Positions 351-4,712 of a stretch of 28,179 nucleotides of DNA are shown one piece after another. The DNA comes from a virus. Its lineage: Duplodnaviria; Heunggongvirae; Uroviricota; Caudoviricetes. The position numbers were made by a program, and so were the translations under genes. The number at the start of each line of letters is the position of its first letter. The stretch's first letter is position 1. Under the pieces are notes generated by a model that was not told the DNA's origin, did not search any database, and saw only the letters and a list, made by a program, of their open reading frames with translations. Where the stretch lies: positions 1 to 28,179 of IMG/VR virus record IMGVR_UViG_2778261154_000006; one strand, 5' to 3'.

Positions 351-998
351 TTACAAATTAAAAAACACCCTAGAAATGGCGCCGCCTACCAAAACCCCTA
401 CGCAGATAAAGAATATTATTTCTTTTGGATAAAGTCGGAGTAATTCTGAAGCACGAAGTCGGACTTCTGGTAAGGTCGAACTCTCTGTGTGGCTTGATGC
501 CGATTGTTGCTCTAACCACGACAATGCAGACTGTAACTGAGAACGAGTAAGATCGTTTAAACGTCCTGTACCGAAATTGATATGGCAATACCGCAGAAGT
601 TTTTGTCGAAGTCCACAGTCTTCACTGTTACGTAGTAATAAACTTACAAGAGTCTTACAGGCATCATGATCTTTACATCGCTCAAGCATTGCATGCAGAA
701 AACTCTCCGCTGTTTTATATTGATTTACTGTCATATCATCAATACCAGCTACACCAATCTCCGCATGTACTTTTTGCCAAATAATAAACGCTTCAGTATT
801 GCTAGCTTCTGCAATAGCAGCAACCAAGCTATTTAGCTCCTTACGCTGAGCCTTAAGCAAAGGGCGATCATCATCATTATTCGAAGGGATTGCGATATTG
901 ACGGTATGAGAACCATCATATCGCTCTATCTGAATATTCTTTTCGTGAAAATCACGCCCAGCAACGCGATTGTTTGAACCGTTTGAGTTGACGGCCAT
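351..998 (-). CDS. tail-anchored membrane protein of unknown function; N-terminus carries the peptide motif found at the C-termini of the two adjacent HTH proteins
   Basis: 215-aa ORF. C-terminal hydrophobic segment IIFFICVGVLVGGAISRVFF. GGAGGT Shine-Dalgarno 3 nt upstream of the ATG. N-terminal residues 5-19 (NGSNNRVAGRDFHEK) match the C-terminal tails of the ORFs at 1014-1418 and 1445-1870. Confidence 0.5.
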   Translation of the reverse strand: MAVNSNGSNNRVAGRDFHEKNIQIERYDGSHTVNIAIPSNNDDDRPLLKAQRKELNSLVAAIAEASNTEAFIIWQKVHAEIGVAGIDDMTVNQYKTAESFLHAMLERCKDHDACKTLVSLLLRNSEDCGLRQKLLRYCHINFGTGRLNDLTRSQLQSALSWLEQQSASSHTESSTLPEVRLRASELLRLYPKEIIFFICVGVLVGGAISRVFFNL

Positions 999-1013
999 GT
1001 CACCTCCCTACTA

Positions 1014-1418
1014 TCACCTACCCTTAGTTTCGTTATAGTCACAACCAGCGATACGGTTATTACCGCCAGAAATATTTAACTCACGTCCTGATGGCTGAGT
1101 TTCCTTTTCACTGATCGCACCTTTTAAAGCCCCGATCACCGCGTTTTTCACATCTAACGAAGCTGCTCGAAAGCGAGTAATCAACTCCTGCTCATCATCG
1201 TTATAAGTTTCAGATGAGTGAATTCCCAACACAACATACTGAACATCAAGGCCAAAACGAGACAGCGCTGCCAAATACGCAGCATCAGGAAAACTATCTC
1301 CTTTCTCATATCTAAGCTGAGTTAGCTTTTTGACTCCGCCAATGTCGCTCATAGCAACTTGACTAAGTCCCAACCTTTCCCTTTCCTCACGCAACCGCTG
1401 ACCAATATCACTTTTCAT
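1014..1418 (-). CDS. XRE-family helix-turn-helix transcriptional regulator (phage repressor-like), paralog of 1445-1870
   Basis: N-terminal region IGQRLREERERLGLSQVAMSDIGGVKKLTQLRYEKGDSFPDAAYLAALSRFGLDVQYVVLG fits the XRE/Cro-CI HTH pattern. C-terminal tail NISGGNNRIAGCDYNETKGR is shared with the neighbours. Confidence 0.7.
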   Translation of the reverse strand: MKSDIGQRLREERERLGLSQVAMSDIGGVKKLTQLRYEKGDSFPDAAYLAALSRFGLDVQYVVLGIHSSETYNDDEQELITRFRAASLDVKNAVIGALKGAISEKETQPSGRELNISGGNNRIAGCDYNETKGR

Positions 1419-1444
1419 ACAAAAACCTTGACAGGTATCTTTCG

Positions 1445-1870
1445 CTAACCCTTCGTTTCATTATAGTCACGACCTGCAATACGATGGCCTTTACCTGATA
1501 CGTTTACCGTATTTGATGCAGAACTACCCGCAGTCAGGGCAGCAAGAGCTGCAGCCTTTACGGCAAGCGGAGCATTTCTAAAATGCTTGATAATTTCCAT
1601 CTCATCACGGTTTAGAGCACCCCCGACAGCCTCACCAGTTAGTATGTATTGGACGTTAGCCCCATTAAGCGCAAATGAGAGCAAAACATCTCCCCCAGGT
1701 ACCATAGTTCCCCGTTCGTACTTCCCCCAAGATTCTCGCGATACGCCGCAAAGAGCAGCAGCATCAGCCTGTTTGAGAGATAAACGCTTTCTCTCAGCCT
1801 TCAGTCTCGCACCACAAAGAGATGAAAAATTCACTTTTATACCTTGACTAAAGAGATCTATTGATCTCAT
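1445..1870 (-). CDS. XRE-family helix-turn-helix regulator, probable immunity repressor (CI/C-like); the true start may be the GTG at 1834
   Basis: HTH region LKAERKRLSLKQADAAALCGVSRESWGKYERGTMVPGGDVLLSFALNGANVQYILTG. It is the first gene of the leftward operon, divergent from the rightward early genes. C-terminal tail VSGKGHRIAGRDYNETKG. An in-frame GTG at 1834 has an AAGG 7-8 nt upstream. Confidence 0.7.
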   Translation of the reverse strand: MRSIDLFSQGIKVNFSSLCGARLKAERKRLSLKQADAAALCGVSRESWGKYERGTMVPGGDVLLSFALNGANVQYILTGEAVGGALNRDEMEIIKHFRNAPLAVKAAALAALTAGSSASNTVNVSGKGHRIAGRDYNETKG

Positions 1871-1873
1871 AAT
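1844..1873 (+). promoter_or_regulatory. predicted sigma70-type early rightward promoter (TTGACT-N18-CATAAT) in the repressor/early-gene switch region
   Basis: TTGACT at 1844-1849 and CATAAT at 1868-1873, just upstream of the first rightward gene at 1911. The palindrome TTAATTAA (1873-1880) overlaps the -10 region and is a possible operator. Pattern-based only. Confidence 0.35.
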
Positions 1874-1910
1874 TAATTAACAAACCATTAGATGATCACA
1901 ATATACCACT

Positions 1911-2117
1911 ATGAAACAAGTTCTTCACGATACCAGATCACGCATTCCGCGTAACACCGCCGCAGGTCCAAGACTGGCACTTCGGCTGTCCATCGAGGAG
2001 CGAGCCGTCATTGATGAAATGGCAGCTAAAGAACAACGCTCATCCTCTAACATGGCGCGCATGATCTTCCTTCGCGGCCTAGAGCTAACCCAGAAAGAAC
2101 AAAACAAATCTTCCTGA
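1911..2117 (+). CDS. small ribbon-helix-helix-like regulator (Cro/CII-position gene of the early operon)
   Basis: 68-aa ORF, first gene divergent from the repressor. Segment RLALRLSIEERAVIDEMAAKEQRSSSNMARMIFLRGL resembles the RHH (Arc/MetJ/CopG) pattern. Confidence 0.45.
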   Translation: MKQVLHDTRSRIPRNTAAGPRLALRLSIEERAVIDEMAAKEQRSSSNMARMIFLRGLELTQKEQNKSS

Positions 2118-2133
2118 TCAGGAGGCTAGTGGG

Positions 2134-2337
2134 ATGTCAGGTATAACCATCAATATCAATGTGAATGCCCCCTATGTATCCCTGCAGAAATATGCAGAGA
2201 TAACAGGTATCCCTCTTAATACATGCAAAAAGATGTTGGCTGACGGTCGAATTATTATCCGCCCCAAACGTGCCAAAATGGAAAAGCCTGAAGTAAACCT
2301 TGTGGCGATGTTAAAAGACGCTTTGGCTAACAGCTAA
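2134..2337 (+). CDS. small HTH protein, possibly Cox/Apl-like excisionase or regulator
   Basis: 67-aa ORF with GGAGG SD upstream. Segment SLQKYAEITGIPLNTCKKMLADGRI resembles the HTH of P2 Cox (recalled from memory). Confidence 0.4.
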   Translation: MSGITININVNAPYVSLQKYAEITGIPLNTCKKMLADGRIIIRPKRAKMEKPEVNLVAMLKDALANS

Positions 2338-2358
2338 AACAATGAACAGAGCATCATC

Positions 2359-2709
2359 ATGAAAAAAAACGCTAATAATCCATACTCCAAATTTCGTAAT
2401 GGCGTAGAACGCCATGTACACCACGTTGCTACCAGTGCATCACGTAGCAACATCCGCTACAGCCTGAGCGATACACACGCAACGCCGGATGGCTACCCCG
2501 TAAAACAAATCGGCGAGCACGCCTGGCTGATTGAGAAAGCTGGAATCGTAGTCCACAAATACCCACGCAATCCGTTTACCGGAAACCGCATTTTTGCTCT
2601 GAGCTGCGGCGACAATCAGTTCGGGCAGGATTTCACGTTGTACGAAGCGCTACGCACAGTTGATCGCCTTCTTTACGGAGAAAATTTTATTAAACAGGCT
2701 GAGTTATAA
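2359..2709 (+). CDS. hypothetical early protein
   Basis: 116-aa ORF, co-directional and tightly spaced in the early operon. No recognisable motif. Confidence 0.4.
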   Translation: MKKNANNPYSKFRNGVERHVHHVATSASRSNIRYSLSDTHATPDGYPVKQIGEHAWLIEKAGIVVHKYPRNPFTGNRIFALSCGDNQFGQDFTLYEALRTVDRLLYGENFIKQAEL

Positions 2710-2998: not shown

Positions 2999-3184
2999 AT
3001 GAATTTCAGTTATTCATTCAGTGTACCGGAGTCGTTATTTGTTATCACACTGATTGCAGCCGCAATGTTTTTTGCCATCTGCATACTGACACTTATTGAT
3101 ACATGGCGGGAAATACGCGACAGACGTCGCCAGAAAAAAAACGGGATGCATACAACGCATTCATTCAGCACAAAGAAGACGTAG
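2999..3184 (+). CDS. small single-pass membrane protein
   Basis: 61-aa ORF with GGAG SD 9 nt upstream. Hydrophobic stretch LFVITLIAAAMFFAICILTLI followed by a basic tail RDRRRQKK. Confidence 0.4.
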   Translation: MNFSYSFSVPESLFVITLIAAAMFFAICILTLIDTWREIRDRRRQKKNGMHTTHSFSTKKT

Positions 3185-3281
3185 AGCGTAAAGCACGCCG
3201 CCGTCTTTAGTTAATTAACCGGTTTCGTTAATACACCGCTCACGCGGCGGGATTCGCACAATCTGAATAAGGGAAATAAAA

Positions 3282-3704
3282 ATGATTAATCCGACACTCA
3301 CCCTCAAAGATAAAGCCCTTGCGGGCGCAATGTTTTTACGCAACTACGCCGCAATGATGGCTGACACTGACAACCCGATTATGGTGCTGTCAGTGGAGCC
3401 TCACCTTATCGCCGCAGACGCAATTGAACAGGTGGTACAGGAAAACACCTGTCTGAGAAATCAGCTTGCCACCCTTCAGACAGCAGCTGACCCGGCAAAG
3501 GAAAGTGCTGAACACACCTGCCACACCACATTCATCAAAGGGACCCGCGTATGTCTGAAAAACAGTCCGCAGCAACGCGGAACGGTCGTTGACACCCGCA
3601 CCAGTAGCCCCGCCATTGACCGGGTTTTCGTCCGTTTCGATTCCCCCTTCGAGGAAGACCGCCGGGTAAAGACCAGAAACCTGGAAATAACCCCCGACAA
3701 ATGA
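3282..3704 (+). CDS. hypothetical early protein
   Basis: 140-aa ORF with AAGGG SD upstream. Preceded by a 97-bp intergenic region containing the palindrome GTTAATTAAC. Confidence 0.45.
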   Translation: MINPTLTLKDKALAGAMFLRNYAAMMADTDNPIMVLSVEPHLIAADAIEQVVQENTCLRNQLATLQTAADPAKESAEHTCHTTFIKGTRVCLKNSPQQRGTVVDTRTSSPAIDRVFVRFDSPFEEDRRVKTRNLEITPDK

Positions 3705-3958
3705 AGCTGATTATCCCTGCGCGACACCGCAAAAACCGGATGAAGCCAGGGGGAAAGCCGGAGCGGGCAGCAAGGGCGGCATACCGTCGCCTGCTGAAGG
3801 GGGACCGGTCACACGTGCGACGGCTGGAGCGGGTACCGCCCGCCCGCGTCATCAACGTCATGTACCGTTACCGGCTGTTAAGTCTGGACGAAGGCCGGAC
3901 ATGGGTACTGCTTAACCATAACGAATACGTGAAGAGGATAAGACGATGTTACAGATGA
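3701..3958 (+). CDS. hypothetical small basic protein
   Basis: 85-aa ORF, start overlapping the upstream stop. Arg/Lys-rich. GC-rich region, so weak support. Confidence 0.3.
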   Translation: MKLIIPARHRKNRMKPGGKPERAARAAYRRLLKGDRSHVRRLERVPPARVINVMYRYRLLSLDEGRTWVLLNHNEYVKRIRRCYR

Positions 3959-4476
3959 AATTTAAGCCCTGCTTTATTGACGCATTCCGCAACGGACGCA
4001 AGACCACATCCCTTCGCCCGACGGGGTTTGATTGCTACCAGGCGGGCCAGGAGTCAGCAGAATATTTTCATGAAGACACCCTGACCCGCAACATCGTTCT
4101 TCCCGATTACAGCGCCGGCGGTACCCTGGTTTTTGAGGAGGGAACCACATTTACCCGCGCATCAGACTTTGCCGGACTCCTGAAAAGACAGCCCTACCGA
4201 CAGTATGACAACATTCATCTGGTCACAGAAAACAAGAACGGCGAAACCGTGCCGTTCGCCGTGGCCTTCATTGCCGATATCGGTGTAATACAGGGCCGCC
4301 AGATAACCGATGAAGTGGCCGTCAGGGACGGCTTTAACCCTGAAAACCATCCCCGCGACGAACTCTTTGCATTCATGCGGGACACCTGCCACATAGAAAA
4401 CCCCAAAAACGAAACCTACTGGCGGTACACCTTCACCCACATCGTGATGTTGTCGCAGTGGAGGGCTGACGCATGA
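3946..4476 (+). CDS. hypothetical protein, possibly ASCH/PUA-like fold
   Basis: 176-aa ORF. N-terminal FIDAFRNGRKTTSLRP loosely resembles the ASCH-domain G-x-K-T-x-E/S-x-R signature. Sits upstream of the Dam methylase. Confidence 0.4.
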   Translation: MLQMKFKPCFIDAFRNGRKTTSLRPTGFDCYQAGQESAEYFHEDTLTRNIVLPDYSAGGTLVFEEGTTFTRASDFAGLLKRQPYRQYDNIHLVTENKNGETVPFAVAFIADIGVIQGRQITDEVAVRDGFNPENHPRDELFAFMRDTCHIENPKNETYWRYTFTHIVMLSQWRADA

Positions 4477-4712
4477 AACCCGCCATTATCTGCATTCTGT
4501 GCGAGAGCACTGTCACCGGCGGCCATTACCGCATCAGGGAACGCCACATCAACCCTGACCGTTCGCTGCTGGACAACATCACCGGCCCGAATGATGAACG
4601 CGTGATCTGCCTGAACGACGGCTCGCAGTTACGCGTGCGCAATATCCGGCGCGAAATCACGCTCGAACCCACCCCATTCACACGCGGGAAAAAACCGGAG
4701 AGTGACGCATGA
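4473..4712 (+). CDS. hypothetical protein
   Basis: 79-aa ORF, translationally coupled between neighbours (overlapping start and stop). Confidence 0.35.
   Translation: MKPAIICILCESTVTGGHYRIRERHINPDRSLLDNITGPNDERVICLNDGSQLRVRNIRREITLEPTPFTRGKKPESDA

Follow-up and report, generated by a model that had tools for sequence, protein, structure and literature searches.

A short terminal peptide shared by phage immunity repressors and the partner proteins encoded with them

The window analyzed here (the whole stretch of 28,179 nucleotides of IMG/VR record IMGVR_UViG_2778261154_000006) is a P2-like (Peduoviridae) prophage, with replication, terminase, capsid, and tail genes running from ~4 kb to 28 kb; the nearest phage record is Escherichia phage 520873, of the genus Xuanwuvirus. 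At its left end lie 4 leftward genes, encoding a helix-turn-helix (HTH) protein of 141 amino acids (aa), an HTH protein of 134 aa, a protein of 215 aa, and a YebY/DUF2511 protein. The subject of this work is a peptide of 18 residues, here called the tag, which lies close to the carboxyl terminus of both HTH proteins and close to the N-terminus of the 215-aa protein, here called the partner. An Arc-like (phrog_3431) and a Cox-like (phrog_575) gene are encoded rightward on the opposite strand at 1911-2337. Because these genes diverge from the HTH genes from position 1911 onward, the HTH genes sit at the immunity-repressor position of the lysis-lysogeny switch. From this position opposite the Arc-like and Cox-like genes, the 141-aa protein is the presumed immunity repressor, with operator binding and immunity as putative functions. 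The features central to the analysis, with the evidence for each gene (open reading frames [ORFs], family profiles, and AlphaFold2 [AF2] models), are as follows.

1445..1870, minus strand: XRE-family HTH repressor of 141 aa, heading the leftward lysogeny operon (ORF, Pfam, PHROG, AF2)
1014..1418, minus strand: second XRE-family HTH repressor, 134 aa (ORF, sub-cut-off Pfam, DNA identity to an O26 prophage)
351..998, minus strand: partner, 215 aa (ORF, PF27202 on homologues, NCBIfam Flk, AF2)
1454..1507, minus strand: carboxyl-terminal tag of the 141-aa repressor, VNVSGKGHRIAGRDYNET, residues 122-139 of 141, ending 2 residues before the carboxyl terminus; kept in homologous repressors
1026..1079, minus strand: carboxyl-terminal tag of the 134-aa repressor, LNISGGNNRIAGCDYNET, residues 114-131 of 134, ending 3 residues before the carboxyl terminus; carries R126C
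939..992, minus strand: N-terminal tag of the partner, VNSNGSNNRVAGRDFHEK, residues 3-20 of 215; nearly invariant in 26 homologues

The tags of the 2 repressors in the window share the consensus V/L-N-V/I-S-G-x2-N/H-R-I-A-G-R/C-D-Y-N-E (18 residues). In pairwise comparison, the 3 window tags are identical at 12/18, 9/18, and 9/18 amino acids, and the best ungapped BLOSUM62 scores of 64 and 53 compare with 11 +/- 4.5 (maximum 30) in 1000 shuffles, corresponding to z-scores of 11.8 and 9.5. The ORFs, the positions, and these z-scores of 9.5-11.8 bear out an earlier note on this DNA, which had described the motif at the ends of both HTH proteins and the start of the membrane protein. The DNA identity of 70-75% given there proved too high, as we measured 65%, 63%, and 54% over the 54-nucleotide (nt) core, with third codon positions the least conserved. 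A direct-repeat search over 45 nt gave 80% identity between the 2 tails and 60% between tail and N-terminus. No fourth copy of the tag was found in any frame of the 28-kb window.

The 141-aa repressor consists of an HTH domain (residues 15-78, nt 1637-1828), a helical hairpin (residues 88-115, nt 1526-1609), and a flexible tail (residues 116-141) that carries the tag. It passes the Pfam cut-offs for HTH_31 (35.1 bits, cut-off 27) and HTH_3 (25.7 bits, cut-off 23) and matches PHROG repressor families, and its AF2 model, from a 22-sequence alignment, has a predicted local distance difference test (pLDDT) score of >90 in the HTH domain and of ~50 in the tail. The 134-aa repressor belongs to the same fold family and falls just under the Pfam cut-offs (HTH_31 23.2 bits, HTH_19 22.6 bits, HTH_3 19 bits).

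In the partner, the tag is followed by a conserved unstructured stretch (residues 21-38, nt 885-938), a helical Flk_N domain (residues 45-171, nt 486-866), and a single transmembrane (TM) segment (residues 191-214, nt 357-428). The latter is a hydrophobic helix in the AF2 model and, at the extreme carboxyl terminus, would serve as the anchor. The model, from a 90-sequence alignment, has a pLDDT of 80-90 in Flk_N and of <50 in the tag. Pfam Flk_N (PF27202) is assigned to nearly all of the 120 partner homologues among the matches listed, including a 99%-identical cluster. The NCBIfam Flk equivalog (NF007987) aligned to residues 39-165 only and scored 57.2 bits against a cut-off of 353, and on these scores we rejected the partner as an orthologue of Flk. 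The partner matched no defense family in PADLOC, and a PDB sequence search with the Flk_N profile found no match. Both repressor and partner tags are modeled with low confidence in AF2 monomers (pLDDT 40-52), as would be expected of a short linear motif whose folding requires association.

Between the 2 tagged ends that face each other in this operon lies a short junction, which reads as follows.

999..1016, minus strand: gene junction TGA TAG TAG GGA GGT GAC, then ATG; the 134-aa repressor gene and the partner gene are in frame, with 3 stop codons and a GGAGGT Shine-Dalgarno sequence between them

In the Klebsiella-type loci inspected, repressor and partner are separated by a single stop codon and 3 codons. 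A fusion of repressor and partner by read-through was considered and rejected, given the 3 stops here and the distance from one motif start to the other in other phages, which is not always a multiple of 3 (73, 91, and 79 nt).

Beyond the window, tag loci were ascertained either via the partner or via the tag itself. The N-terminal tag hardly varies among 26 Flk_N homologues of the partner from many enterobacterial genera, whose overall identity is 58-97%. The repressor encoded upstream always ends in the tag, in Klebsiella, Erwinia, and Serratia prophages as well as in 80 IMG/VR contigs, despite differing HTH domains. In Erwinia, a YebY gene lies between the tagged repressor and the partner, and the match is retained. 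A query with 57 carboxyl-terminal repressor residues against a large protein database gave 10 candidates and only 4 matches.

A profile of the tag, covering 25 positions, was searched against 1.84 billion representative proteins and returned 45 matches. All 42 matches that consisted of a single stretch were located at residues 1-25 or no more than 4 residues from the carboxyl terminus. The remaining 3 were repetitive proteins, and the 2 of these that were inspected look eukaryotic. The strongest match, P0164, is a eukaryotic Ig-domain repeat (ANNIAGRDFHEIKLNV) and was set aside as a chance similarity. Besides the 3 repetitive proteins, the tag was found in this search solely in repressors and partners, and in no cellular protein. 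The carboxyl-terminal carriers were all HTH-type, repressor-like proteins, some of them available as fragments only, with several kinds of N-terminal domain.

A second family of N-terminal carriers, unrelated to Flk_N and ~115 aa in length, combines the tag with a CxxC...CxxC zinc ribbon and 2 TM segments. Here the tag is invariant, while the remainder of the protein is 28-40% identical. These zinc-ribbon partners were found in Mu-like, Ner-encoding Pseudomonas phages, directly after the tagged repressor; a tblastn search of GenBank phages with the Pseudomonas protein gave no match, and thus no named phage with that exact partner type. The search for zinc-ribbon and TM-only partners scanned the back-translated core over IMG/VR and one genome per species, and TM-only and other small partners were found as well, each directly behind a tagged repressor. 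The partner types therefore include Flk_N with a TM segment, a zinc ribbon with 2 TM segments, a TM segment only, and a soluble Flk_N-like protein. As the other domains of the partner are interchangeable in this way, the tag, rather than a folded pocket of the partner, is the common element.

The pairing is close to complete. Among 169 gamma-type tag loci, the 2 carriers are encoded on the same strand in 157, in most cases at a distance of 68-91 nt. The other 12 comprise 10 loci in which the partner has a slightly variant tag missed by the pattern, 1 in which the tail ends further from the carboxyl terminus, and 1, from Lysobacterales, that has no partner in reach. A repressor with a carboxyl-terminal tag (generally no more than 8 residues from the end) is thus paired with an N-terminally tagged protein at 168 of the 169 loci. 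In nearly all carboxyl-terminal carriers, including those of Ralstonia, a hairpin pattern, (D/E)E..L...(Y/F)R.......LLA.L, precedes linker and tag, and the linker between hairpin and tag ranges from 0 to ~40 residues. The tag is a conserved pair across temperate phages of several families and not a local accident. It is the best-conserved segment of the Flk_N partners, of the zinc-ribbon/TM partners, and of repressors with different DNA-binding domains. The suggestion of a functional short terminal motif, as opposed to a duplication artefact, is borne out by this conservation in 3 unrelated families, by the terminal position and the pairing, and by the concerted change described below; the alignment of homologues, which had been proposed as a check, shows a motif that is both conserved and terminal.

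Other tag classes were found in beta-proteobacterial phages, and in each of them the sequence of the repressor tail is matched by that of the partner N-terminus.

Ralstonia P2-like phages: repressor tail ...VINGGSNNVQIGSV..., partner N-terminus ...SITDGNGNVQIGKV...; GGSNNVQIG paired with GNGNVQIG
Burkholderia phage KS10 (Mu-like): repressor tail ...MVASGSGITQVGS..., partner N-terminus ...MSASGFGIIQVAGD...; VASGSGITQVG paired with SASGFGIIQVAG
A 56% relative of KS10: repressor tail MVATGTGIVQVGG, partner N-terminus MLATGSGIIQVAGD; ATG in both
Ralstonia phage YO107_2 (Mu-like): repressor tail ...PTGDIFGRDLV..., 2 partners with ...GPVGDVAGRDII... and ...GPVGQVAGRDII...; GDIFGRDL against GDVAGRDI and GQVAGRDI

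The KS10 homologue is annotated as a phage repressor. Scores within cognate classes were 24-56, compared with -2 to 27 across classes, with the top overlap between the 2 beta-proteobacterial classes. In a permutation test of the matching, the observed sum was reached by only 6 of 5040 permutations. In phages of R. solanacearum, 2 different tag classes occur in one host species, each matched within its own phage. In YO107_2 (locus L254, 3441-4705), one tagged repressor gene is followed by genes for 2 tagged membrane proteins, a Flk_N-like protein of 285 aa and a small TM protein. This stoichiometry of one tail and 2 partners is the converse of that in the window, where there are 2 tails and one partner.

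The genes for repressor and partner are convergent in the Ralstonia P2-like phages. Longer loci from the scan with the Ralstonia tag pattern revealed distant convergent repressors, and in Ralstonia pickettii-type phages the 2 convergent tag genes flank 3-5.7 kb of variable cargo; the tag match persists. Because the matching survives in convergent genes kilobases apart, the pairing does not depend on adjacency. When the Ralstonia tag was back-translated to a DNA pattern and searched in IMG/VR, the matches were mostly due to chance and out of context, and only the known Ralstonia family was real. The cargo interval (loci L103 and L106, ~3140-4700; also L187, L194, L203, L225, L238, and L253) may be a hotspot for accessory or defense genes, and one cargo protein of 514 aa starts, by eye, like an AAA/OLD-type ATPase (MRIQHLRLRNFRSI...GANNAGKSS). 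In Ralstonia P2-like phages (L011, 2855-3271, minus strand; L012, 2952-3305, minus strand), the gene right behind that of the repressor encodes an untagged protein with a zinc ribbon and a TM segment, which recalls the tagged zinc-ribbon/TM partners seen in Pseudomonas phages.

These data bear on whether the repeated sequence has a role as DNA and none as peptide, such as a joint for recombining immunity modules, a regulatory site in several copies, or a local duplication of recent date. The 45-nt direct repeats of the window would be compatible with this, as would the mosaic DNA-binding domains of the repressors, set against a conserved carboxyl-terminal part and a conserved partner gene. However, 36 and 46 distinct DNA versions of the 8-codon core were found, in which R, V, A, and G draw on the full set of their synonymous codons and the residues are fixed; selection therefore acts on the peptide. 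The low DNA identity among the window tags, with its most variable third codon position, points the same way, as does the match between distant convergent genes. An Rfam scan gave nothing above noise, and a promoter and terminator scan gave no excess of promoter-like sites. The junctions of the segment that carries the extra repressor gene in this window (1439-1442 and 1887) lie outside the motif, so that neither they nor the codon usage of the core fits the recombination joint proposed in the earlier note. As a sufficient explanation, a purely DNA-level origin is refuted by the junction mapping, the distant convergent pairs, and the synonymous codon usage, and we regard any account of this kind as extremely improbable.

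We propose that the tag serves as a portable interaction element at protein ends, by which the immunity repressor is physically linked to a mostly membrane-bound partner and the lysis-lysogeny switch is tuned, with direct association of tag to tag as the most economical reading; we hold this proposal with about as much confidence as doubt. Conservation, position, pairing, and predicted disorder are observed features of the sequences and models, and from these we infer the steps that follow. The repressor would present its tag on a flexible carboxyl-terminal tether and the partner on a free cytoplasmic N-terminus. The partner gene lies in the operon of the repressor here, is usually adjacent elsewhere, and is convergent in the Ralstonia P2-like phages. 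As only like tags occur together, 2 copies may pair by beta-strand association. In this window, the tail-anchored Flk_N protein would retain part of the 141-aa and 134-aa repressor pool at the inner membrane, which would change the amount of repressor free to bind operators, so that the partner would modulate the switch. It could be an anti-repressor that works by titration, or a sensor that lets go of the repressor or takes it up upon a change in its own state. A mimic of the repressor tail on the membrane protein, which might bind or titrate the repressor, was among the ideas of the earlier note and is, judging by sequence, the best-supported of these.

The argument for tag-to-tag association is that the tag alone is common to all N-terminal carriers, that like tags travel together, and that the classes in R. 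solanacearum phages are matched internally. Several points weigh against it. The pairing of the tags is deduced from co-occurrence and co-variation alone, and the co-variation comes from 4 or 5 independent lineages. A V-A-G-R-D core with fixed charged residues recurs in P2-like and Mu-like phages, from those of Enterobacterales and Pseudomonas to one of Ralstonia, and a third-party receptor common to both tags would produce the same conservation. Repressor and partner genes are adjacent on one strand here and at most loci, and are thus probably co-transcribed; constitutive sequestration would then need an extra regulatory input. Finally, the partners of the Ralstonia P2-like phages and of KS10 have no TM segment, and tethering to the membrane is therefore not universal.

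Both tags could instead be read by one shared factor, for instance a protease, adaptor, or chaperone of the host; the partner would then be a decoy, competitor, or membrane adaptor that sets the half-life of the repressor. We consider this unlikely, even though the tags are exposed, flexible, and strictly terminal, as is typical of degrons, and the AGRD core is fixed across very different phages and hosts. There is also precedent, as the carboxyl-terminal tail of the phage Mu repressor controls its own degradation by ClpXP, and lambda CIII shields CII from FtsH as a competing substrate. However, the profile search retrieved no cellular carrier of the tag, the phage carriers are essentially never single, and to our knowledge the tag fits no ClpX recognition motif. 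The coexistence of 2 tag classes among R. solanacearum phages, each matched internally, argues against a single host receptor and weakens the idea of a protease tag that had been raised for this locus.

Alternatively, the tail of the repressor could dock on its own helical hairpin, in cis or between dimers, to form oligomers, and the partner tag would be a competitive mimic and anti-repressor; the contact would then be of tag to domain. This would suit the hairpin pattern that precedes the linker and tag, and the rather constant architecture of the repressors beside the varying domains of the partners. The Flk_N bundle moreover weakly resembles the ORF6C and Red-beta carboxyl-terminal bundles of phage regulatory proteins. 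On the other hand, the AF2 model leaves the tail undocked from the hairpin, the KS10 repressor has no visible hairpin pattern (by eye, unaligned), and the need for a near-terminal tag is left unexplained. On balance we find hairpin docking quite doubtful.

If like tags associate with one another, they could also do so as a polymer. According to Dyrka et al. (bioRxiv 10.1101/2020.01.06.895854), bacterial amyloid signaling sequences (BASS) have an excess of Q, N, G, V, and I and a deficit of K, P, and L, and a BASS11 amyloid signaling pair, Bab/Agp, is carried by a prophage of E. coli (Ibarlosa et al., bioRxiv 10.1101/2024.11.07.622273). Amyloid motif pairs of this kind (BASS, Bab/Agp, HET-S/NWD2, and RHIM) resemble the present system in their layout, with a motif of ~20 aa at the carboxyl terminus of one protein and at the N-terminus of a protein encoded by the neighboring gene, matched within pairs and diverging between lineages; it was through precisely this layout that the fungal and bacterial motifs came to light. 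Also shared are carriage on a prophage, one-to-many arrangements of carriers, and a composition biased toward G, N, Q, V, and I and away from K, P, and L. In 14 representative tags, the composition was 16.3% G, 12.7% V, 10.7% N, 10% S, 9.1% I, and 6.3% Q, compared with 1.6% K, 1.6% L, and 0.4% P. The beta-proteobacterial tags contain a phi-Q-phi-G element (N-V-Q-I-G in Ralstonia, G-I-I-Q-V-A-G in Burkholderia), which only comes near G-phi-Q-phi-G, while the window tags have no Q core.

The tags could accordingly form a cross-beta (amyloid-like, RHIM- or BASS-type) heteropolymer, in which clustering of one carrier would template the other and convert the repressor in a switch-like manner, an account we judge improbable on the present evidence. 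Its gene-pair logic would be that of fungal and bacterial amyloid signaling, including Bab/Agp of the E. coli prophage; the length of the tags (~18-25 aa), their BASS-like bias, the V-Q-I-G or I-I-Q-V-A-G of the beta-proteobacterial tags near the core of RHIM, PP, and BASS3, and the one-to-many stoichiometries of the window and YO107_2 all agree with it. In the templating that we have in mind, and which is no likelier than the polymer itself, clustered partner tags would nucleate cross-beta capture of repressor tails, so that a signal at the membrane could be turned into an all-or-none, SOS-independent loss or stabilization of repression. Against this, hmmscan of 8 tag peptides against Pfam gave no match even at E<=10, RHIM, PP, and HET-s included, and the window tag is highly charged (R, R, D, E), which would stack identical charges in an in-register parallel sheet. 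The carriers also differ. Amyloid motif pairs join an NLR/STAND or tetratricopeptide repeat (TPR) sensor to a death effector (Bell, HeLo, or TIR), whereas here an HTH repressor is joined to a small Flk_N/TM or zinc-ribbon/TM protein. Neither Dyrka et al. nor the Bab/Agp paper mentions repressors, HTH domains, or Flk. Because the carriers differ, no profile matches, and the window tag is strongly charged, we do not assign the tags to BASS and state only that layout and composition resemble those of amyloid signaling pairs.

The proposed coupling through a portable tag has partial parallels among other regulatory systems. Transcription factors are sequestered at the membrane by zinc-binding anti-sigma factors, which act on extracytoplasmic function (ECF) sigma factors, and by PtsG, which holds Mlc. 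As in those cases, the cytoplasm-facing N-terminal part of a membrane protein would keep a DNA-binding regulator off the DNA, and the Pseudomonas-type partners, with tag, zinc ribbon, and TM segments, are topologically like small anti-sigma factors. Those systems, however, use contacts between folded domains rather than an identical short tag on both proteins, and we found no sequence relation to them. In the cI-rexA-rexB operon of lambda, the membrane protein RexB is co-transcribed with the repressor, and RexA and RexB are reported to influence the transition from lysogenic to lytic growth. The likeness is that, on the lysogenic transcript, the repressor gene is followed at once by a gene for a membrane protein, which might act both in control of the switch and in exclusion. 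The lambda proteins have neither homology nor a shared terminal tag, whereas the link proposed here would be direct and encoded in the sequence. Flk, a carboxyl-tail-anchored flagellar regulator of E. coli and Salmonella, resembles the partner of the window in its helical Flk_N domain and carboxyl-terminal membrane anchor; we take chromosomal Flk to lack both the N-terminal tag and a tagged repressor partner, and the tag also occurs on partners without Flk_N. Our searches of full texts retrieved no paper with the tag strings, and none that linked Flk-like or other membrane proteins to P2-like repressors in this way, which points to a repressor-partner link that is apparently undescribed.

The presence of 2 tandem repressor genes sets this window apart from its relatives. 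The 134-aa type is the sole repressor in an E. coli O26 prophage and in phage 520873. The 134-aa gene has 98.8% DNA identity to that of the O26 prophage, where the gene adjoins the switch region. An O26-type repressor gene is present in 508 of 5,426 complete E. coli genomes, including Shiga-toxin-producing O26 and O103 lineages. The tandem arrangement itself was found in none of the 5,426 genomes and in none of the IMG/VR relatives; related prophages have a single repressor. It can be traced to one segment.

1443..1886, no strand: segment carrying the entire 141-aa gene, in place of 27 nt that separate the 134-aa gene from the shared switch region in the O26 and 520873 prophages (blastn junction mapping)

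Its junctions lie 3-6 nt past the stop codon of the 141-aa gene (nt 1439-1442) and in the shared promoter region (nt 1887). Tandem repressors might give double immunity. Compared with its O26 counterpart, the 134-aa protein of the window differs at S3N, S69P, and C126R. At the last of these, R126C, a cysteine replaces a near-invariant arginine of the tag (codon 126, window 1041-1043) in this window only, while arginine is kept in all ~45 related copies. The change could reflect decay of a now redundant copy, or it could be a natural loss-of-function allele useful in experiments.

A promoter-like site at 1844-1873 on the plus strand (TTGACT-18-CATAAT, 10/12, a consensus match only) is directed toward the Arc-like and Cox-like genes. 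It overlaps the 5' end of the 141-aa repressor gene and would fit face-to-face early and lysogenic promoters in the style of P2. The switch region and Cox-like gene (window 1887-2492) are 92-98% identical between prophages with a 134-aa-type and a 141-aa-type repressor, and these repressor types are ~40% identical, which prompts one to ask where the operators are located and if such phages are truly heteroimmune. At the other end of the operon, the fourth gene is incomplete.

73-321, leftward: YebY/DUF2511 gene, truncated by an IS1 end at 1-77

The IS1 end, which is 97-100% identical to IS1 copies, cuts this member of the lysogeny operon. Intact relatives have the integrase gene next after YebY/DUF2511; the window does not contain it. 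E. coli strain OkiPb01684 has an IS1 within the equivalent YebY/DUF2511 gene.

The immunity repressor is the central switch of temperate phages, and its known routes of inactivation are RecA-stimulated self-cleavage, soluble anti-repressors, and proteolysis. The role of the tag is directly testable by deletion of the 18 residues or by a single point mutation, and the rule that like tags occur together offers a simple bioinformatic handle on the partners of repressors in other phages. Should the association prove to be cross-beta, it would be the first amyloid-type signaling module outside cell-death immunity in bacteria, and templating of this kind would extend amyloid signaling from cell-death immunity to the lysis-lysogeny decision. 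Both P2-like and Mu-like phages have kept the pairing of tags, in hosts that range over Enterobacterales, Pseudomonas, Ralstonia, and Burkholderia. Coupling of the repressor, through its own sequence, to a partner that mostly resides in the membrane would, if true, add a further layer of control to this switch.

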